Source of the DNA: a plasmid
Reading direction: 5' to 3' (one strand)
NCBI RefSeq assembly: GCF_054482525.1
Contig: NZ_JBTHVG010000004.1
DNA: 64,000 nt
The position numbers were made by a program, and so were the translations under genes. Every line of letters starts with the position of its first letter. Within the stretch, counting starts at the first letter, position 1. Below are positions 1-51,100 of this stretch, piece by piece. Below the pieces are notes generated by a model. That model ran no database searches. It was not told the DNA's origin and saw only the letters and a program-made list of their open reading frames with translations.

Positions 1-1077
1 GTGTATAAATACACGGCACAATCGCTCCGCCATAAGCGACAGCTTGTGGCAGGTCTGAAGAATACTCCATATAACGCAGTACACTGGTGTCAGTTAGCAC
101 CCGAAGAGCAGATCCGTTTCTGGGAAGACTATGAAGCGGGAAGGGCGACCACTTTCCTGGTTGAACCGGAAAGGAAGCGCACGAAGCGTCGTCGTGGTGA
201 GCACTCCACCAAACCCAAATGCGAAAATCCGTCCTGGTATCGTCCTGAGCGCTATAAGGCGCTGAGCGGGCAGCTCGGGCACGCCTACAACCGTCTGGTG
301 AAAAAGGACCCGGTGACCGGCGAGCAGAGCCTGCGCATGCACATGTCTCTGCATCCTTTTTACGTGCAGAAACGAACGTATGCCGGTCGCAAATATGCTT
401 TCCGTCCGGAAAAACAACGCCTCCTCGATGCCGTCTGGCCGGTTCTGGTCAGCTTCAGTGATGCGGGCACACATACCGTAGGCATGAGTGTTTCCCGTCT
501 GGCCAGAGAAATCAGCCCGAAAGACAGCAAGGGGAAGGTTATTCCGGAACTGGAAGTGACGGTCTCCCGCCTTTCCCGTTTGCTGGCCGAACAGGTACGT
601 TTTGGTGTGCTGGGTGTTTCAGAGGAAACCCTGTGGGACCGTGAAACCCGCCAGCGTCTGCCACGTTACGTCTGGATAACACCGGCAGGCTGGCAGATGC
701 TGGGCGTCGACATGGTGAAACTTCACGAACAGCAGCAGAAGCGGTTGCGTGAAAGTGAAATCCGCCAGCAACTCATCCGGGAAGGCGTACTGCGTGAGGA
801 TGAAGATATCTCCGTACATGCGGCCAGAAAACGCTGGTATCTGCAGCGCAGCCAGGATGCACTGAAACACCGTCGTGCAAAAGCGGCAGCCAGTAAGCGC
901 GCCAGACGTCTGAAGAAACTGCCTGCCGACCAGCAGATTCATGAGATGGCAGAGTATCTCAGGAAGCGTCTGCCGCCGGATGAAGCCTATTTTTGTTCCG
1001 ATGACCATCTGAAGCGACTGGCCATCAGGGAGTTGCGTCAGCTTGAACTGACGCTGGCTGCGCCACCGCCGCACTAG
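1..1077 (+). CDS. repZ: Plasmid replication initiator (RepZ/RepA1-like, I-complex); ORF open to window edge, true start may lie upstream
   Basis: 358-codon ORF beginning at position 1 (GTG); basic initiator-like protein; followed by DnaA box and hairpin-rich origin-like region; fits IncI1 backbone order. Confidence 0.7.
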   Translation: MYKYTAQSLRHKRQLVAGLKNTPYNAVHWCQLAPEEQIRFWEDYEAGRATTFLVEPERKRTKRRRGEHSTKPKCENPSWYRPERYKALSGQLGHAYNRLVKKDPVTGEQSLRMHMSLHPFYVQKRTYAGRKYAFRPEKQRLLDAVWPVLVSFSDAGTHTVGMSVSRLAREISPKDSKGKVIPELEVTVSRLSRLLAEQVRFGVLGVSEETLWDRETRQRLPRYVWITPAGWQMLGVDMVKLHEQQQKRLRESEIRQQLIREGVLREDEDISVHAARKRWYLQRSQDALKHRRAKAAASKRARRLKKLPADQQIHEMAEYLRKRLPPDEAYFCSDDHLKRLAIRELRQLELTLAAPPPH

Positions 1078-1980: not shown

Positions 1981-2265
1981 ATGCAAATGAAAAACAATAC
2001 CGCACAGGCAACAAAAGTAATTACCGCGCATGTGCCATTACCTATGGCTGATAAAGTCGACCAGATGGCCGCCAGACTGGAACGCTCCCGGGGCTGGATT
2101 ATCAAACAGGCGCTTTCTGCATGGCTTGCCCAGGAGGAGGAGCGTAATCGCCTGACGCTGGAAGCCCTGGACGATGTGACATCCGGACAGGTTATCGACC
2201 ATCAGGCTGTACAGGCCTGGGCGGACAGCCTCAGTACTGACAATCCGTTACCGGTGCCACGCTGA
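1981..2265 (+). CDS. RHH (CopG/RelB/ParD-like) antitoxin
   Basis: 94 aa; stop overlaps start of downstream RelE/ParE-like ORF (shared position 2265); small acidic C-terminus. Confidence 0.65.
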   Translation: MQMKNNTAQATKVITAHVPLPMADKVDQMAARLERSRGWIIKQALSAWLAQEEERNRLTLEALDDVTSGQVIDHQAVQAWADSLSTDNPLPVPR

Positions 2266-2540
2266 TGGAACTGAAGTGGACCAGTAAGGCGCTTTCTGAT
2301 TTGGCGCGGTTATATGATTTTCTGGTGCTGGCCAGTAAACCTGCGGCCGCCAGAACGGTGCAGTCCCTGACACAGGCTCCGGTCATTCTGTTAACTCATC
2401 CACGTATGGGGGAACAGTTATTTCAGTTTGAACCCAGGGAGGTCAGACGGATTTTTGCTGGCGAGTACGAAATCCGTTACGAACTTACTGGCCAGACTAT
2501 TTATGTATTGCGCCTGTGGCACACACGAGAAAACAGGTAG
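2265..2540 (+). CDS. RelE/ParE-family toxin
   Basis: 91 aa; translationally coupled to upstream RHH gene; C-terminal ...YVLRLWHTRE typical of RelE/ParE fold proteins. Confidence 0.7.
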   Translation: MELKWTSKALSDLARLYDFLVLASKPAAARTVQSLTQAPVILLTHPRMGEQLFQFEPREVRRIFAGEYEIRYELTGQTIYVLRLWHTRENR

Positions 2541-2645
2541 ATTGTGTGTGGGGACAACTTAACATAGCCTGCAGATATTAATTCTGGAACATTATTATCA
2601 GGCCAGATATTTTGCATTCCATTAAATAATCTTGTAGGAGATAAA

Positions 2646-2927
2646 ATGAATTACGATGAAATAACGAAAATTACCGCTGAACGTATTAGCGACTACATGA
2701 CTGAAGCAGTTAATACAGACTCTATAGCCGTTGCGGAAATGTTTCATAACGCTGCATGGGGAGTGCGAACATTGTGGTTTGAACTCGTCACAAAAATAGA
2801 TATAGATATACATAAAAAGAACAGGTATGCGAGTTATGATCTTAGAAGGAAAATCGAAATGCAGCATGAAGAGTTTCAGAAAATGACAGAGCGCGAGCAA
2901 GTGCCTTTATTGAAATCGCCAGAATAA
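2646..2927 (+). CDS. Hypothetical protein (AT-rich island)
   Basis: 93 aa ORF preceded by SD-like aggagataaaATG; AT-rich. Confidence 0.4.
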
Positions 2928-3118
2928 TAGAAACAGAACAAGTACATTGCTGTATTGTTTTTTCCTTGAATATTGAATCGCGGTGCCCATGTACTACGAT
3001 TCCTTTCGTGTCATTTATCATTGCACACTTTCCCTGACTGAGCGTAAAACACTGACTACTTTCCCCTCAAACTCCTGGACGGCGAATGCAAAATTGGTCT
3101 GTTCCAGCCTAGAATATG

Positions 3119-3388
3119 TTACTTTTTCATGACCGAACCCGAAATTTTGCGCGTCAACAAGAGACGTTGTGTAAACTCAGTCCTTTTATCTGGCAGGTTA
3201 ACCCCTATCAATCTTAGGATGAAACCACGCCATCCTCTGTTTGCCTTGTTATTAATTTCATAAAGACGATTGTTTTCCTCTCGTAGTTTTGTCCACTCTA
3301 AACAAAGTGTTATATAATCCAGTTCTGTGATGTGTTTCACTTTTCCATTGACAGTTACAGTGTTTATTCCATTTCCTGTGATCATCAT
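3119..3388 (-). CDS. Hypothetical small protein, translationally coupled to upstream membrane protein gene
   Basis: 89 aa; start overlaps stop of 3385..3918 ORF. Confidence 0.35.
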   Translation of the reverse strand: MMITGNGINTVTVNGKVKHITELDYITLCLEWTKLREENNRLYEINNKANRGWRGFILRLIGVNLPDKRTEFTQRLLLTRKISGSVMKK

Positions 3389-3918
3389 CTTATGCCTTTT
3401 TTATCTTCATTTGGGACCGTGCTTTTCTTCGGAGTATCATTATTCGTTAACTGCTGTTTATCAATAAAATTCCTGATGTTATCAAGTGCTTCCTTTGTTT
3501 TTAGAATGCGCTTGATATCCATTTCATCCCGCCCGGTCATTCTTTTTCCGGACAAAAGACGCTCAAGAAGCTCCTGTTTCGCATCAGGAGAATCTTTGGC
3601 GAGATCCATCAGGTTAAGCAAATCTTCACGATCGAGAGGAAAGAAGTATTTTACAAAATACTTGAAAAGCGAAAGAAAGTAGTATGCTGTCCATGCAATA
3701 CAGAAACCGATTCTGAGAAACTCATTGTCAACTATACAGAAATACAGGTATATAATCAGGAGAATAGGTAAAATCCATAATACTATAGCTAAAAAAATAT
3801 ATACGGGGATCAGGCGTCTGTATGCCCGTTCATGTTTATTTAGGATGAATAAAATCTTCTCCGCTTCTGAATCACACATAACATTCTCTTCCCATTTTTT
3901 CTGATACGTAATGTCCAC
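3385..3918 (-). CDS. Hypothetical membrane protein (two predicted TM helices, charged C-terminal domain)
   Basis: 177 aa; hydrophobic stretch LIPVYIFLAIVLWILPILLIIYLYFCIV followed by second hydrophobic segment. Confidence 0.45.
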   Translation of the reverse strand: MDITYQKKWEENVMCDSEAEKILFILNKHERAYRRLIPVYIFLAIVLWILPILLIIYLYFCIVDNEFLRIGFCIAWTAYYFLSLFKYFVKYFFPLDREDLLNLMDLAKDSPDAKQELLERLLSGKRMTGRDEMDIKRILKTKEALDNIRNFIDKQQLTNNDTPKKSTVPNEDKKGIR

Positions 3919-3934
3919 CTGTTATCAGGAGTGT

Positions 3935-4537
3935 TTATTGCCCAGAAATATTCTCCTGCTGTGCCTGCATCCTGAGCCACTTTTGTTCTAATGTCGCCAG
4001 TCTGCGACCGGCACTCTGTGCTTCAGAGTCTGAGACCTGCCCTTTGGGGTGACCATCCAGGCCATAACGTGGGACGCCGGCGACAGCTGTCCGCTGCAGA
4101 TATACGCGGCGGGATGTGATGCAGGACACTGCACAGAGCCATTCGTCCATGGTCAGTTCTGTCTCCGGGTGTTCTGCCAGAAATGCCGAAATATCATTGT
4201 TTATGCCAATTTTCAGGGGAATAAATCCACCACCTTCAGCACGAAGATGAGGAAACAGGGCCTTTATTTTTTCCACGCACTCGTGAGTATACTCACGGGT
4301 CCAGTGGGAGGGACGTGGAAAACGGTGTCTTTTCTTTTTCTTCTTCCTGGCTGGCGCTTCGGGGATATGTGTTTCGACGGCAGATGAATTTATTCCGGCG
4401 GGGGCTGATTCTGCCGTCTGTTCAGTAAATACAGGTGCGATAATATCTGTTTTTTCGGATAAGGACGGTGGCGAAAAAGTACGACGTTTTTTCACCACAA
4501 TGACGGGAGTTTTCCTTTCTTCCTGATATTTTCCCAT
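3935..4537 (-). CDS. finO: FinO/ProQ-family RNA chaperone-like protein
   Basis: 200 aa; Lys/Arg-rich N-terminal half and C-terminal region resembling FinO fold (..EWLCAVSCITSRRVYLQRTAVAGVPRYGLDG..). Confidence 0.6.
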   Translation of the reverse strand: MGKYQEERKTPVIVVKKRRTFSPPSLSEKTDIIAPVFTEQTAESAPAGINSSAVETHIPEAPARKKKKKRHRFPRPSHWTREYTHECVEKIKALFPHLRAEGGGFIPLKIGINNDISAFLAEHPETELTMDEWLCAVSCITSRRVYLQRTAVAGVPRYGLDGHPKGQVSDSEAQSAGRRLATLEQKWLRMQAQQENISGQ

Positions 4538-4712
4538 AAATACCTCGGCTATGTTGTTCTACTTCCTTATAATATCATAGTTCAAAATTTAATAAACTTT
4601 CTGTTATGTAATATCCCTTGATAATTTACGAAGATGACTCTGTACCCTGCTATGTGAATCAGGAACGTTTATAGCAGGATACAACGGATTGTTACTTACA
4701 CAGTAAGATTTA

Positions 4713-5765
4713 CTAAGGTTTGTTTTCTTCTTTTCTTATATTTATCTGGTAATCCTTATCAACAATGCCTGCTCTACTGTTTGCATTAATCATTGCTGGT
4801 CTGATCCATATTAGTTTGTTATTTTTCCTGCGAATATGTCCTCTGCGTAAGTGCATCCTTTTCGTCCCACCGGATTTTCCTGTTCCAGTATGATTACTTT
4901 GCACCTTAGTTTCAGACAGTTGCAATACTTTATAAGTATATGAAGGGCGCTTGTTTTTTTCAGGTGGCTGAACTTTACGACCATTTATGAATTTTCTTTC
5001 TGGTTTAGTGCTAAGTGTGACAGGACACACATTTTCGCAATTTAACACGCTACATGCCTGTATGAAAGCCTGTAGTTCATCGCGAGTATCCATAATAATT
5101 TGCGCATATAATCTTTCAATACTTCCCACCTGCTTTATCAAATCATCTTTAAATTCCATGCTTGTTATAAAAGGCTCTGCTTTGAAGTGTGCTGCATTAT
5201 ATTTGGCTACTCCATTCTCTTTTAATGTGTCGATTACAAGCCTGGATGCAGGCAATGTCCTGTCAGGTTCGTATTTAGTGAGTTTGTTGTTATATGGGAA
5301 AAACATTCCACCGACACCAAGAATCCATATTTTTAAATCATCAGACCATGAAACAGGAAGGATAAACACTCCGCCATCAATATAAGTGTTAAGGATTGAA
5401 TTACATCCCGGGATGGGTTCAAAACTCTGTCTGGCCTCCCAGCACAGGGCAATTCTTCTGGATGATGGTGATATATTAAAATCACCTATTTGGGTTTCTA
5501 CATTGTCTTTGAACCATGGTATTTCAAATGTTACAACTGGATATGGTAATCGTGCCAAATCGAAATGCGTCTGGCGGTATTCTTCTGGTTCAATAATATC
5601 GCAGCAGTTCGGTAAGATGAACTTAACACTACTGTCCAGCATATCAATGACCTGACGCATAATATATGATGTAAGAGGTGCATTTGACCTTAATCCTTTT
5701 TCCATGACAGACAGGTCTTTTATGGCTTCCTTAGTGTAATTTAGTGGAGTAATTGTATCTTTCAT
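4713..5765 (-). CDS. Hypothetical protein, AT-rich cargo; C-terminal basic motif shared with 39354..40445 product
   Basis: 350 aa; AT-rich relative to flanks; C-terminal TGKSGGTKRMHLRRGHIRRKNNKLIWIRP. Confidence 0.6.
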   Translation of the reverse strand: MKDTITPLNYTKEAIKDLSVMEKGLRSNAPLTSYIMRQVIDMLDSSVKFILPNCCDIIEPEEYRQTHFDLARLPYPVVTFEIPWFKDNVETQIGDFNISPSSRRIALCWEARQSFEPIPGCNSILNTYIDGGVFILPVSWSDDLKIWILGVGGMFFPYNNKLTKYEPDRTLPASRLVIDTLKENGVAKYNAAHFKAEPFITSMEFKDDLIKQVGSIERLYAQIIMDTRDELQAFIQACSVLNCENVCPVTLSTKPERKFINGRKVQPPEKNKRPSYTYKVLQLSETKVQSNHTGTGKSGGTKRMHLRRGHIRRKNNKLIWIRPAMINANSRAGIVDKDYQINIRKEENKP

Positions 5766-5977: not shown

Positions 5978-6568
5978 TTACGGGACGCTACTTTCATTTA
6001 TCTGTACGCGAACCTCTATTCCTGCGTCATGACAGGCCTGCAGCCACTGCGCCACTTCCAGCGGATCGCCCTCCAGGCGTACCACCCTGCCTTCTTTATT
6101 CCATAACTGCAGACAGGTGCTGCCGTCGAGACGCACCACAAAATCCCCACGGCAGGCCTGATACGTTATGCCGTTCAGCTCCACCGCCAGATCAGTGGCA
6201 GAAGTGCCGTCTGCGGGCAGACCTGCTGCCGGGACCAGCGGCAGTACGACGACTTCTGCCGCACGCTGTTCTGCCCGGAGGCGGTCCTGTTCTGCCAGCA
6301 GCAGAGGCTGTGCCACGGCCCGGCCGGCGTCCGTCAGCTCCACTGCCAGCTGCAGGTTCGGAGCGCGCAGGGTACGCAGCCAGCCGGCATCCTCCAGACG
6401 ACGGCAGGAGGCGCGCAGGTTTGGCCCGTAGACCGGGGCTTCCCCGCTTCGCTCCAGCACCCGTTCTATGTCCCGCGTCAGCACGGGTCCCGGCCGTTTT
6501 TCATCAAGGGCAGCCAGCACAATCAGCACTCTCCGCTGCAGTGGCGACGGTCGGCGGCTCTGAGTCAT
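5978..6568 (-). CDS. Hypothetical protein with putative N-terminal winged-helix DNA-binding domain (GC-rich gene)
   Basis: 196 aa; start overlaps stop of 6568..6822 ORF; high GC; opposite-strand 255 aa ORF is Pro/Arg/Ala-rich and judged spurious. Confidence 0.5.
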   Translation of the reverse strand: MTQSRRPSPLQRRVLIVLAALDEKRPGPVLTRDIERVLERSGEAPVYGPNLRASCRRLEDAGWLRTLRAPNLQLAVELTDAGRAVAQPLLLAEQDRLRAEQRAAEVVVLPLVPAAGLPADGTSATDLAVELNGITYQACRGDFVVRLDGSTCLQLWNKEGRVVRLEGDPLEVAQWLQACHDAGIEVRVQINESSVP

Positions 6569-6822
6569 TAACTGTCACCCTCCGACCAGATGAGTTTTTT
6601 GAGGCGCTGATAATCGGTATCGATGCGTTCCCGGGCCTGTGCGTGATTGTTCTGTGGCGCACCATGAATGGCCAGTTCATACCACAACCACAGCAGAGCT
6701 GAGGCCCTCAGTTCATTGAGGCACCTGGCGCTCTGGCTGTCCAGCCCACATTCACGGATATTTTTTTCCGCTATTCGGGTCAACTGCTCATAGCTGAGTG
6801 AAAACACCCTTTCTTCATCCAT
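6568..6822 (-). CDS. Hypothetical small protein, first gene of a two-gene operon
   Basis: 84 aa; translationally coupled to downstream 196 aa gene; palindromic operator-like sequences just upstream. Confidence 0.45.
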   Translation of the reverse strand: MDEERVFSLSYEQLTRIAEKNIRECGLDSQSARCLNELRASALLWLWYELAIHGAPQNNHAQARERIDTDYQRLKKLIWSEGDS

Positions 6823-48139: not shown

Positions 48140-51100
48140 CAGAGATTGTATCCCTGTTTTCGGATGAGCTCCGAGGCCAGTTCTTCAATAACATTGTCAC
48201 TGTTATGTTGGCCCGCCCGGTGCTCAATTAATGACGTTGCAGAACCTCTGGGGAAGTTTTCGGCCAGAATCTTACGTGCCCGAACTGAACCTAACTTATT
48301 TGTCAGTGTTTTACGCAGGGCACTGTCTTTTGGCGATGAGTTCAGCGCCCATAGCTCCAGTGGACCGACGGTAAATTTGAGTATTCTCGCAAGCGTGCCA
48401 CTTTTTACCCTGAATACTCCCAGAACAGGAACACCACTACCATCTGGTGCCGGGCCTTCCGGCATTTTCAGGAAGCGTTTCAGCATAAATTCAGGCACGT
48501 TGAAGTTATCCCTCAGTACGGGGATATCTTCGGGTTTGTAGCGCAGTAACCAGAGAGTATTTGCTGACTTAAGAACGCTTTCCGGGTAGTCCCTCAGATA
48601 CTGCGTACTCAGAACCGTGCGGATAGCAAACTTGCGTTGCTCACGCTCCTGGGTATCCAGATTTTCCCAGATGAAGTCAATGCCCCGGGCGTTATGCAGT
48701 TCATCATAAACTTTTGTCTTAACCTCCTGATCAAGTTGGTTAATACGTTTAAGAGCGATTTCATGGTATTCCCGTGGAAGCTGCTTTAACACTTCATCCC
48801 TGTATTGTGGCAGGGTGAAGTCACCACCGGCGATCTGACCTGCAAGCAGGTACATGATGCCGGTTTTAAGCCTGCCTGCAGGCGTTTTGTCACCGGCAAC
48901 ATTATTCAGATCGACAGCGATGACCCGGGTTTCCGGGTTGATCATAAACCGGGTATACCCGGATATCATGGGGTAGTCGTTATGTCCCTGCTCGAGAGCG
49001 CGGCGGATGTAGTCCAGCAGAAGTTCGTTTGAACCATCACGCTGAACAGTACCGAAAACATCCCTGAGACTGGTATGGCCCAGCATCGAGGACACTTCGG
49101 GAAGCTGGGGCATTGCCTGATAATGTGCCCGCTGAGCCGCCATGATATACCCGGCATTGTGGAGCATATCCCGGACTTCGAACCAGGTTGATCTGGCCCA
49201 CCAGGCTGCATCATGTTTTTCATACAGTCCCGAGTCCTGCAGTGCTGAATCCACCAGTTCTTCCGTTGAGGCGCGATAAAGTCGCGGATTATTTTCACCG
49301 TACTCTTTAAAAGCCAGCTCGATAAGCTGGTTGATAATTTGTCGGGTGTCTCCGGGGTTACAGGGTTGACCGGTACCGGTATCGACACAGAGAGCACACA
49401 GCACAGATGACATGAAATTCTTTTCCGGCGTAATAGGCTTTTTAGCGCCGTACATCACGTCAAAAAGGTTACGGGTGTATTCCGGATCATTGCTCAGAAT
49501 AATACCGACAGCTTCGTCTTTTCTTTCCGGAGGAAGACTGTCGCGAATAAGCTGAACCAGTCCCTGAGCACTGTATCCCTTATCGATATAGGCAATGAAG
49601 GGCAGGTTTTTCTGAGCAGATGATATCTGTATTTCCGACAACGTATTAATCAGAACTGATTTACCCAGTCCCGGATCGCCTGGTGCCAGTTCTGTATGTT
49701 TATTTTGTTGGGATGACGCCAGACCAACCTCAAATGCGGAACCGTCTTCTGTATGTAACATCAGATTCCCTTTGCCTCGCCAGACAGAGCCTGCCCTGTT
49801 AAGCGGGAAAAGCGAGATGGCATGTGACAACGGGGGATACAGGGGAACCGGGCCGGAGCCTCCGGATGCCGCGAGAATGGTATTCACCCAGGCGCGTCGG
49901 GGATCGCCAAATGTTGTCGTGGTGCCACATACGCCCCAGCCTTCAATGGCCGATTTCAGAATGGCCTGGTTTCGTGTGCATATTTCACGTGTTTTTCCCC
50001 ACGTGGAGGCCATGATGGTCATTATGCAGACAGGTTCTTTTTCATCCGTTGCAGCCAGGGTCATAACGGATTCATACATTGGACGAACGGCAGAAATGAA
50101 GCTGCTGTAAGTCAGAAGCGTTTTCTTCAGATTAAGAGCCTTCATCCCGCCGGGCATCAGATCCATTCTGATGCGCCAGGGGACTGCGCGGGGGACGGCA
50201 CGGACCAGTTCGTTAAACGTCTGCAGATTTTGCGGAGGTAAAGTAATCGATACCATTCCGTGCCAGAGTCCGCCCGCCTGAACCAGGTTGCCCTGTGTGG
50301 TCACCTGAGTGTTGAATAACTGCAAATGCAATGAAGGAGCATGTAGTACGGATTCATCGTCAGTCCAGCGATATCCCGCTGGCTGGGCATCTTCAGGCAG
50401 GTGGGGTTGCCAGTTACGCGGTGTGCTGTGCCGTTCTGTCTGACGACGTATTTCACGCCCGACCTCGTGTATATCCAGTAGCCGGAGAATCAGGCCATCA
50501 GATGAATGTCTCAGTGCCTGTTCCACATTATCAAGAAAAGCTTCGTGGCGGATTTTCAGTGCAGATAAGGCCCACTGCCAGGGGGACTGGGCAAAGCGTG
50601 CTTTCGGTACCCGTTCAGCCAGTCTTCTGACAAGCTCATCATGGGCGGTGCGATCGCTGTTGCTGATAAGGTCGGGTCCACTCCAGATCGCCAGCCAGCA
50701 ACGCTCCCGGACCAGCCATGGGGACAGTGTTGTGACTTTCTCATCGACCACATCCTGTAACTGGATACCTGTATTAGCCAGTGAGCGCTTTTGTGGGGCG
50801 ACCATGTCTTCGATTTCTTCTTTCCCCATGTCAGGATCACGCTCAAAAACGAAGCTGATTTTATGACCGCTGTTTTTATATGCCGTATTCAGGCTGTCAC
50901 TCATGCTGGTGATCAGCGATTCCAGTGAACCTGGGCCAGTCTGGTCGGATGCTTCATCCATTTCCCTGAAAGCACCGCTGACTTCAAAGACAGAGAGATA
51001 TTCTCCACGCTTTGTGGCTGCAATATAGGGCGAATTCAGCCATGGGCGGCGTTCACGATCCTGTCTGTCCAGACCAATTACAGTACGTAAATCGCAATAT

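Follow-up and report, generated by a model that had tools for sequence, protein, structure and literature searches.

yafA, orf88 and a neighbouring reading frame in an AT-rich segment of an IncI1 plasmid: families, gene context and possible roles

The best-described counterpart of the genes considered here is found on ColIb-P9 (pCol1B9), in which fopA, also named yafB, sits between yafA and yagA (PMC7491321), and the FopA protein of this plasmid binds the Inc antisense RNA of repZ (PMC7491321). The name yafA dates from the ColIb-P9 sequence, and all three genes at issue, namely yafA, the small gene orf88 that overlaps it and a further reading frame (ORF A), are known, catalogued and annotated as hypothetical; a literature search gave no functional data on yafA, yfiA or orf88, the 'yafA' of IncX and Salmonella papers being an unrelated gene name. 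A transposon screen of pESBL (PMC4288162, Table 2) scored YafA at 0.96 for non-essential, 0.04 for maintenance and 0.00 for transfer. That screen has shown yafA to be dispensable for plasmid maintenance and transfer in an allele 63% identical to the present one, from a plasmid in which orf88 is already truncated, and the result is not informative on the intact pair.

The window, a 64,000-nt stretch of a plasmid contig (NZ_JBTHVG010000004.1, assembly GCF_054482525.1), carries the same fopA-yafA-orf88 block (Table 1). Positions 3117-4599 are 98% identical in DNA to ColIb-P9 4895-6377 (blastn), with gene order, spacing and overlapping stop and start codons the same, and the encoded proteins are 98.5% (FopA), 98.8% (YafA) and 96.6% (Orf88) identical. 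The two plasmids differ on either side of the block, which in ColIb-P9 is followed by a second yafA reduced to a 95-nt relic, by yadA and by yacC (a 3'-5' exonuclease gene), whereas in the present plasmid ORF A and another allele of the ParE pair come after it; upstream of fopA stand yagA in ColIb-P9 and an AT-rich ORF of 350 aa in this plasmid. The comparison with reference IncI1 plasmids that had been proposed in a first-pass annotation of the segment accounts in this way for yafA and orf88 and leaves ORF A outside the shared block.

Table 1. Features of the segment and its flanks (window coordinates).
Feature	Position	Strand	Description	Basis	Placement
yacA-like gene	1981..2265	+	RHH (CopG-type) antitoxin	Pfam RHH_1, E=3.7e-11; PGAP annotation in identical plasmid	First gene, module 1
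yacB-like gene	2265..2540	+	ParE/RelE toxin	Pfam ParE_toxin, E=1.2e-16	Module 1
ORF A	2646..2927	+	93 aa, acidic (pI 5.4), soluble conserved hypothetical	ORF list	Module 1, outside yafA pair
Spacer	2937..3116		Non-coding, convergent	blastn boundaries	Junction of modules 1 and 2
orf88 (C)	3119..3385	-	88 aa, basic (pI 10.2)	ORF, overlap, PGAP CDS	Last gene of fopA-yafA-orf88 block
yafA (B)	3385..3879	-	164 aa, predicted inner-membrane, two TM helices	ORF; start by Shine-Dalgarno sequence, PGAP and homologues; UniRef name 'Protein YafA'	
fopA/yafB	3935..4537	-	FinO/ProQ-domain RNA-binding protein	Pfam ProQ, E=1.4e-12	

Gene content and module boundaries

The sharp fall in GC described downstream of the RelE/ParE pair is borne out, as GC per 300-nt interval runs at 0.51-0.56 over 1951-2550, lies at 0.35-0.42 over 2401-3900 and is back to 0.54 at 3901-4200. 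By gene, ORF A (0.38), yafA (0.37) and orf88 (0.38) contrast with fopA (0.50), parE (0.50) and repZ (0.56). All three listed ORFs (2646-2927, plus strand, 93 aa; 3119-3388, minus strand, 89 aa; 3385-3918, minus strand, 177 aa) exist and behave as real genes, by dN/dS (0.16 for ORF A, 0.16-0.26 for orf88 and 0.34-0.56 for yafA) and by plasmid counts, each being present in about 2,500-3,700 PLSDB plasmids. The yafA/orf88 junction on the minus strand reads AAGATGATGATC, with the yafA stop TGA (3387-3385) inside ATGATG, and the overlap claimed between a membrane gene and its small partner is therefore real; it spans 4 nt if orf88 starts at 3388, the 89-aa frame first given, and 1 nt if it starts at 3385, as in the PGAP call of 88 aa. 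The 177-aa length given for the membrane protein did not survive, although its two TM helices did. That form would begin at a GTG at 3918, which is preceded by CTCCTGATAACAG, without a Shine-Dalgarno sequence. We assign YafA a length of 164 aa, with its start at the ATG at 3879, because a Shine-Dalgarno sequence (in the preceding GGGAAGAGAATGTT), the PGAP call and the homologue starts all point to this codon, every YafA homologue beginning at the matching position (MxKSDxEKI).

These genes do not form the single three-gene cluster first proposed, since the blastn boundaries divide them between two modules. Positions 2301-2936 (the 3' part of the ParE gene and ORF A) share 92% identity with a stretch beside parMR on an IncFII plasmid, with homology extending up to 2936, and homology with ColIb-P9 runs from 3117. 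Two recombination modules thus meet in this part of the accessory region of a Col-type IncI1 plasmid, module 1 consisting of the RHH/ParE pair and ORF A, and module 2 of the fopA-yafA-orf88 block as in ColIb-P9. Our best explanation as a whole, which adds to these modules the operon, the roles given below to YafA and Orf88 and the non-defence reading of the pair, seems to us about as likely as not. The spacer at their junction is present in 387 plasmids and has neither a special RNA structure (fold z-score +0.30) nor a terminator-like site; the sole RNA element found in the RNA-element search was a partial PK-repZ pseudoknot at 1-33.

FopA belongs to the FinO/ProQ domain family (PF04352, scoring 47.9 bits where the gathering cut-off is 27), and yafA follows fopA on the same strand after a 55-nt gap. 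Weak consensus scans found no promoter-like or terminator-like site at the fopA/yafA and yafA/orf88 junctions or past orf88, and weak promoter-like matches only within yafA. Judging from this spacing and these scans, the block may be transcribed as a single unit from upstream of fopA, which is probably the first gene of the operon, and translation of orf88 could be coupled to that of yafA through the TGA-inside-ATGATG overlap. Neither yafA nor orf88 accompanies the fopA homologues of R64-type, IncF and IncI2 plasmids.

YafA and its relatives in conjugative operons

By hydropathy the first TM helix of YafA is strong and the second, rich in aromatic residues, is weaker, and the AF2 model of the protein is a helical hairpin (helices 3-48 and 53-79), in agreement with the topology first described; both termini are predicted to lie in the cytoplasm. 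The earlier statement that no family could be recognised also holds, as neither YafA nor Orf88 matched Pfam, NCBIfam, PADLOC, PHROGs or, by sequence or profile, the PDB, and a Pfam search of 46 members of the two families gave no significant match. One PDB hit, to a helix bundle of de novo design, was rejected as compositional. The fold search that had been suggested, with AF2 models of both proteins at medium confidence (pLDDT 73-75), returned no informative fold match for either.

An exhaustive profile search recovered only 104 representatives of the YafA family among 1.84 billion proteins. YafA shares with them a length of about 145-170 aa and the N-terminal helix EKIxxILxxHE, in which I9 hardly varies and the close set agrees throughout at K8, I12, L13 and E17, followed by a two-TM hairpin whose columns are unconserved in the alignment. 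The C-terminal motif R..L..L....D..D....RLLSG..T.RD..I is also present, in a three-helix domain (LLxRLLSGKxxTGRDE), and residues R84, L90, D99, R107, L108, S110, G111, T115, D118 and I122 are nearly invariant in 21 sequences, down to 21% identity. This distribution would fit TM helices that serve as a variable anchor only, with the conserved N-terminal helix and C-terminal domain facing the cytoplasm. A dN/dS of about 0.5 shows that yafA is under only weak constraint, and its dS is 0.46 as against 0.043 for the adjacent fopA.

The relatives with a readable neighbourhood lie mostly within conjugative T4SS operons, directly after traR or before virB1. In three F-type operons the order is traV-traR-[YafA-like]-traC, with the start of the YafA-like gene overlapping or abutting the traR stop, and in an X/VirB-type operon the YafA-like gene comes after genes for a NusG-like and an 88-aa protein and before those for SLT, VirB3 and VirB4; at three other loci a copy stands alone, with IS elements or unrelated genes on its flanks. 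The YfiA-type ORFs found between traR and traC of F-like plasmids are homologous to YafA over their full length (35% identity, pairwise E=6e-27) and have the same build, with about 155-170 aa, the N-terminal helix, two TM helices and a LLNRLLSGKxLTGRDE domain. They differ in lying inside a T4SS operon, coupled to the upstream traR and followed by unrelated small ORFs instead of an orf88-family gene. Neither here nor in ColIb-P9 is yafA in such an operon; in both it follows fopA near the replicon. Because most readable relatives sit in conjugative T4SS operons, YafA is most likely an accessory or modulatory factor, non-essential and anchored in the membrane, that is tied to the conjugation apparatus or the envelope; the T4SS link rests on relatives 25-40% identical to an IncI1 gene that itself lies outside any tra operon. 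Our best guess is a conjugation-linked membrane adaptor co-expressed with fopA.

The Orf88 family and ORF A

The orf88 family occurs in 3,718 enterobacterial PLSDB plasmid records, mostly without YafA, and only about 880 of these roughly 3,700 plasmids have the IncI1-type allele beside yafA. Family members without yafA were found at 13 sampled loci, and contexts include the ends of par/kor/hha operons. Conversely, about 310 records of the pND12_96/pESBL lineage retain yafA but have a truncated orf88. Orf88 is only loosely associated with YafA. The gene itself is under purifying selection. Among 25 sequences, G6, I7, T9, V10, K17, H18, I19, L22, D23, E37, L41, Y42, W52, G54, G61 and L64 are invariant, and Orf88 has the family core, a GINTV..(N/G)xEVKHIxxLD hairpin and then an EW.KL..EN..LY....N.GWRGFILRL helix; its AF2 model (pLDDT 74.6) shows a beta-hairpin at 9-18 (strands 9-12 and 15-18) and a helix at 24-59. 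The tail xIxGINAKxESIYP seen elsewhere in the family is missing from the IncI1 copies, which end EFTQRLLLTRKISGSVMKK, and a frameshift origin of this divergent tail was rejected, as the other two frames hold no GINAK..YP-like reading. The most plausible role for Orf88 is in nucleic-acid binding or in regulation. That it might be a degenerate TraR/DksA, as local BLAST hinted, was not upheld (hhalign probability 1.5%; a single, non-invariant Cys within the aligned stretch against a C4 zinc finger), nor was a relationship between Orf88 and YafA (hhalign probability 0.2%).

ORF A is found in 2,576 PLSDB records, including IncF plasmids in which it stands beside parM/parR, and had no Pfam, NCBIfam, PADLOC, PHROGs or PDB match. 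An ORF A homologue (35% identical) lies directly upstream of an orf88 homologue in a Hafnia contig; we reject a functional link, as no PLSDB record contains the tandem at the DNA level and the two genes belong to different modules here, and their adjacency is probably incidental. An apparent ORF A paralogue at 49174-49215 proved to be a chance match within a tra gene of 1,045 aa.

Alternative readings and implications

The AT-rich genes could instead be decaying, silenced cargo, relics of an old acquisition that are not usefully expressed in IncI1 and serve no current function. Their GC of 0.37-0.38 is typical of xenogeneically silenced DNA, and the dN/dS of yafA, its non-essentiality by Tn-seq (PMC4288162), the truncation of Orf88 in one lineage, the replacement of its C-terminal 20 aa in IncI1 and the yafA relic in ColIb-P9 are all consistent with decay. 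We nevertheless consider this unlikely, since both ORFs are intact at at least 95% identity in about 830-860 plasmids from several genera, orf88 keeps its low dN/dS, the cytoplasmic motif of YafA stays almost unchanged at overall identities as low as 21%, and the overlapping start and stop codons are kept in ColIb-P9. The alternative raised in the first-pass annotation itself, that these are conserved backbone genes with an assigned function, is right as to conservation and prior cataloguing (yafA) and not as to function.

Another reading, which we judge quite unlikely, is an obligate two-protein switch in which the YafA-family member ties a small soluble regulator to the inner membrane, releasing it according to the state of the T4SS or envelope. 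For IncI1 that regulator would be Orf88, for F-like plasmids TraR and for the X-like operon the basic protein of 88 aa. A gene for a small (73-88 aa) soluble protein always adjoins the YafA-family gene, traR overlapping it by 8-14 nt or lying 13 nt away, orf88 overlapping it and the 88-aa gene lying 61 nt away; conservation in YafA is confined to its cytoplasmic parts; and orf88-family genes often have a small TM protein gene before them. Such a partnership is difficult to reconcile with the plasmids that have lost Orf88 and kept yafA, with the absence of YafA beside most orf88-family genes and with the lack of any detectable relationship between Orf88 and TraR. That the YafA family as a whole consists of tethers gating Orf88, the RNA-polymerase-binding TraR and the 88-aa basic protein by the state of the conjugation machinery or envelope seems to us very doubtful; if true, it would give plasmids a counterpart of anti-sigma-type sequestration, and the placement behind fopA would tie the tether to IncI1 replication control.

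The resemblance to toxin/immunity or abortive-infection pairs first suggested for yafA and orf88 is understandable, as small, adjacent, coupled plasmid genes next to a genuine ParE/RHH pair are reminiscent of type II toxin-antitoxin and two-gene defence systems, here with a small membrane protein gene apparently coupled in translation to a small partner. The cargo is AT-rich and sits in an IncI1 region in which related plasmids also have phage-inhibition genes (PMC8004404); yafA resembles an exchangeable allele in its dS, with the TM helices most variable, a pattern possible for specificity determinants; its survival of orf88 truncation would suit an orphan immunity gene; and unrelated small TM proteins precede orf88-family genes in several plasmids. 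Unlike type II systems, neither protein, nor the 46 family members searched, has a Pfam or NCBIfam toxin or antitoxin domain, and the two are not co-inherited, each occurring without the other, with the family of Orf88 standing in about 2,800 plasmids without YafA, often with no adjoining membrane gene, and YafA relatives beside traR in T4SS operons without an orf88-family gene. None of the 5,027 PADLOC models matched yafA or orf88 (PADLOC-DB v2, 0 families for all three genes at E<=1), and a phage origin of the pair was rejected after a tblastn search of 50,697 phage records gave no match. Orf88 lacks both a signal peptide and a TM segment, and we know of no case in which a membrane protein neutralises a basic protein of the cytoplasm. 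Entry-exclusion proteins such as TraS of F and Eex of SXT/R391 are likewise small, inner-membrane, encoded with T4SS genes and lineage-variable, but no sequence similarity to YafA was found, and the conserved part of YafA is predicted to be cytoplasmic and is the same across alleles. F-like plasmids with yfiA also bear traS/traT elsewhere. In IncI1 the exclusion function is assigned to excA (PMC4288162, Table 2). The reading of yafA-orf88 as a toxin/immunity or abortive-infection system is thus not supported, and we hold it improbable that the two form such a pair or an exclusion pair, or that YafA works in the inner membrane as an orphan immunity or exclusion protein.

The significance is limited at present, as these are ordinary accessory genes annotated as hypothetical in hundreds to thousands of IncI1 and IncF plasmids. 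Studies of FopA and IncI1 copy number should check for polar effects on, and possible cooperation with, yafA and orf88, and the full-length YafA relatives, next to traR in F-like and ahead of virB1 in X-like T4SS operons, offer experimenters a first way into an orphan family carried on epidemic resistance plasmids.

Genes of the AT-rich stretch

The I-complex replicon at the start of the window is confirmed by the repZ regulatory pseudoknot, PK-repZ, whose 3' end lies at 1-33 (Rfam RF01087, 35 bits; the element is clipped by the window edge). Over 300-nt windows the GC content falls to 0.35-0.42 between about 2550 and 3900, compared with 0.51-0.56 just before and 0.54 just after; by gene, ORF A, yafA and orf88 all lie at 0.37-0.38, and fopA and parE at 0.50. 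The AT-rich stretch described in a first-pass annotation is thus present, as are its three open reading frames and the overlap between the stop of the membrane-protein gene and the start of the small gene. On the minus strand this junction reads ...AAGATGATGATC..., with the yafA TGA stop inside the ATGATG that opens orf88. The 177-aa length given for the membrane protein has to be shortened to 164 aa, because the GTG at 3918 lacks a Shine-Dalgarno sequence and the ATG at 3879, preceded by GGGAAGAG, is both the NCBI pipeline's choice in an identical plasmid and the starting point of all homologues. For orf88, an 89-aa open reading frame, the annotated length is 88 aa.

Coordinates of features in the window and in three other plasmids
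Feature	Sequence	Position	Strand	Remarks
repZ	window	1-1077		replicon of IncI1-type plasmid
Ribbon-helix-helix antitoxin gene	window	1981-2265		before ParE gene
ParE toxin gene	window	2265-2540		after antitoxin gene
ORF A	window	2646-2927	+	93 aa
orf88	window	3119-3388	-	89-aa ORF; called at 88 aa
yafA	window	3385-3918	-	177 aa as longest ORF; 164 aa from ATG 3879
fopA (yafB)	window	3935-4537	-	FinO/ProQ domain; immediately upstream of yafA, same strand
AT-rich ORF	window	4713-5765	-	350 aa; upstream of fopA
Overlapping pair, first gene	window	5978-6568	-	196 aa
Overlapping pair, second gene	window	6568-6822	-	84 aa
Multi-TM gene upstream of orf88-family gene	plasmid L008	3671-3928		85 aa
Multi-TM gene upstream of orf88-family gene	plasmid L022	3241-3480		79 aa
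Multi-TM gene upstream of orf88-family gene	plasmid L020	3260-3439		59 aa

Pairwise Nei-Gojobori estimates of dN/dS (ORF A, 0.16; orf88, 0.16-0.26; yafA, 0.34-0.56) indicate that all three genes are under coding constraint; that they are decaying, silenced cargo is an unlikely reading.

Two recombination modules

Module boundaries were set by blastn of the window against reference loci. One block, window 3117-4599, spans orf88, yafA and fopA with the 60 nt upstream of it and is 98% identical to ColIb-P9 4895-6377. The other, window 2301-2936, takes in the 3' portion of parE, the spacer and ORF A and shares 92% identity with an IncFII Klebsiella plasmid in which the ORF A homologue adjoins parM/parR. 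The 180 nt separating the two homology blocks form a junction present in 387 plasmids, with no notable RNA structure. ColIb-P9 has yacC and yadA at the position held here by ORF A (PMC8004404). From the blastn boundaries and the ColIb-P9 arrangement, ORF A goes with the ParE pair and yafA and orf88 go with fopA, so the single three-gene cluster first proposed resolves into two modules; both carry AT-rich cargo, and their shared low GC does not make one unit of them.

The comparison with reference IncI1 plasmids that the first-pass annotation had called for also places the locus as the fopA-yafA region of ColIb-P9-type IncI1 plasmids, annotated for years, already known and uncharacterised; a literature search found no paper characterising yafA or yfiA. 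Many IncI1 plasmid sequences from E. coli, Shigella and Salmonella contain the 1.7-kb region at 100% identity, and at least 80% of it is carried by 254 PLSDB records. The yafA product is 'Protein YafA' in UniRef, and that of fopA, the name given to YafB by Gerovac et al. 2020 (PMC7491321), shares 98.5% identity with its ColIb-P9 counterpart.

Downstream of its orf88, ColIb-P9 (4731-4817) carries a 95-nt copy, 83% identical to window 3702-3796, of the TM-coding part of yafA, apparently left over from a second yafA; the window has the ORF A junction in its place. Upstream of fopA, where ColIb-P9 has yagA, the window has the 350-aa ORF, which gave no recognisable family, only a short TVHS-like match below threshold. 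Within a GC-rich island (0.62-0.69) lie two more genes whose stop and start codons overlap (196 and 84 aa), a pair conserved in ColIb-P9 (11026-11873); its 196-aa protein gave weak matches only, to an AbiEi_4 HTH (E=0.034) and phrog_19460 (E=4.7e-7).

Protein families and their contexts

Hydropathy and an AF2 model (pLDDT 73) agree with the two-TM membrane protein first described: YafA is predicted to comprise an N-terminal helix continuing into TM1 (H3-48), TM2 (H53-79), a C-terminal three-helix domain (H84-94, H98-109, H116-147) and a lysine-rich disordered tail. With its positive N-terminal flank (NKHERAYRRL) and short loop, YafA probably has both termini in the cytoplasm. Only 104 family proteins emerged from an exhaustive HMMER profile search covering 1.84 billion representatives. 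In a 21-sequence alignment the TM columns are unconserved, and sequences as little as 21% identical still keep an almost unchanged N-helix and motif R..L..L....D..D....RLLSG..T.RD..I. By sequence criteria, yafA and orf88 fit two orphan families confined to plasmids and absent from Pfam, and ORF A found no database match, in keeping with the initial failure to recognise a family.

Homologues 35% identical to YafA, annotated yfiA, occupy F-like tra operons in the order traR-yfiA-traC (L011, L026 and L027), with the yfiA start overlapping or abutting the traR stop; in a VirB-type operon (L025) a relative follows a NusG-like gene and an 88-aa basic ORF and precedes SLT/VirB3/VirB4, and a further relative lies near a TraG_N gene. 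These positions imply that the family accompanies the genes of conjugative type IV secretion, a rule from which the IncI1 yafA, placed behind fopA, departs. In L011 a 124-aa single-TM ORF (3776-4150), lying two genes beyond yfiA, may be a distant paralogue, its helical charged tail loosely resembling the YafA C-terminal region. The only functional datum on yafA is a pESBL transposon screen, in a plasmid where orf88 is already truncated; its scores for the categories non-essential, essential for maintenance and required for transfer are 0.96, 0.04 and 0.00 for YafA and 0.95, 0.05 and 0.00 for FopA (PMC4288162, Table 2).

Orf88 is basic (pI 10.2) and is modelled by AF2 (pLDDT 74.6) as a beta-hairpin (9-18) leading into a long helix (24-59), the tail being poorly predicted; 16 invariant positions of the family alignment fall within hairpin and helix, and Foldseek and PDB profile searches gave no informative match. 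A faint resemblance to TraR was dismissed (hhalign probability 1.5%). In IncI1 Orf88 (window 3119-3180) a lineage-specific 20-aa tail, EFTQRLLLTRKISGSVMKK, replaces the family-wide xIxGINAKxESIYP, which neither other reading frame restores. In three unrelated plasmids a small multi-TM protein gene lies directly upstream of the orf88-family gene; none of the three is related to YafA or to the others. The ORF A product is acidic (pI 5.4) and soluble. On a Hafnia contig a 35%-identical ORF A homologue lies 11 nt upstream of an orf88 homologue, but this tandem is missing from PLSDB at the DNA level, and the ORF A/orf88 adjacency in the window is therefore probably incidental. That IncX-like contig (L003, 4481-6868) carries hha, the ORF A-like (87 aa) and the orf88-like (84 aa) genes in tight tandem, then a convergent Thoeris ThsA/ThsB pair.

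Relation of yafA to orf88

By tblastn against 72,556 plasmids, orf88 occurs in 3,718 records (~880 with the IncI1-type allele at ≥90% identity) and yafA in 2,540 (~940 at ≥90%, ~326 with a 60-80% allele and ~1,270 with a 35% homologue). The pND12_96/pESBL lineage has, behind a 96.5% identical fopA, a yafA allele 63-68% identical and then only a 100-nt orf88 remnant (residues 40-75), with which the ~310 records giving partial orf88 matches are consistent. Solitary yafA alleles adjoin IS elements or unrelated genes, and orf88 homologues without any yafA were found in 13 sampled loci, among them sites at the ends of parA/parB-like operons beside the IncX replicon, after korA-incC-korB, after hha in Klebsiella IncFII(K) and a Hafnia plasmid, next to resolvase genes, in IncHI2 and IncHI1 plasmids, and adjoining tacAT on a Citrobacter chromosome. 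On these separate distributions, yafA and orf88 are not an obligate pair. Downstream of the fopA homologues of R64-type IncI, IncF and IncI2 plasmids there is neither gene. Between two IncI lineages, dS for yafA (window 3385-3879 vs L012 3001-3510) is 0.46, ~10x that of adjacent fopA (0.043), which indicates allelic replacement of yafA beside a conserved fopA, the TM helices varying most.

The anatomy, module structure, family distributions and genomic contexts of the three genes, and the dispensability of yafA, are established by these data. We infer that fopA, yafA and orf88 would form one transcript, because they share a strand, are spaced by 55 nt at the first junction and overlap at the second, and lack any terminator-like site at these junctions or after orf88. 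Translation of orf88 would be coupled to that of yafA; YafA would be membrane-anchored, acting on the cytoplasmic side and tied to the conjugation apparatus or envelope, and Orf88 may be a small nucleic-acid-binding or regulatory protein. We give this overall picture, of the anatomy together with co-transcribed accessory genes, a conjugation- or envelope-linked YafA and a regulatory Orf88, an even chance, most of its weight resting on the anatomy and on the genes being dispensable accessory ones rather than a toxin/defence pair. An obligate membrane-tether switch, suggested by the recurring patterns of a YafA-like protein with a small soluble protein and of a small TM protein with an orf88-like gene, is about as unlikely as silenced cargo. 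Similarly unlikely is a toxin/immunity, abortive-infection or exclusion pair, as partly suggested by the first-pass annotation, which keeps some weight because yafA acts as an exchangeable allele and outlasts orf88 loss, but yafA-orf88 departs from type II toxin-antitoxin pairs and known defence systems in every testable respect. The one lead worth experiment is the link of YafA/YfiA to traR and type IV secretion operons, and a possible partnership with small regulators.
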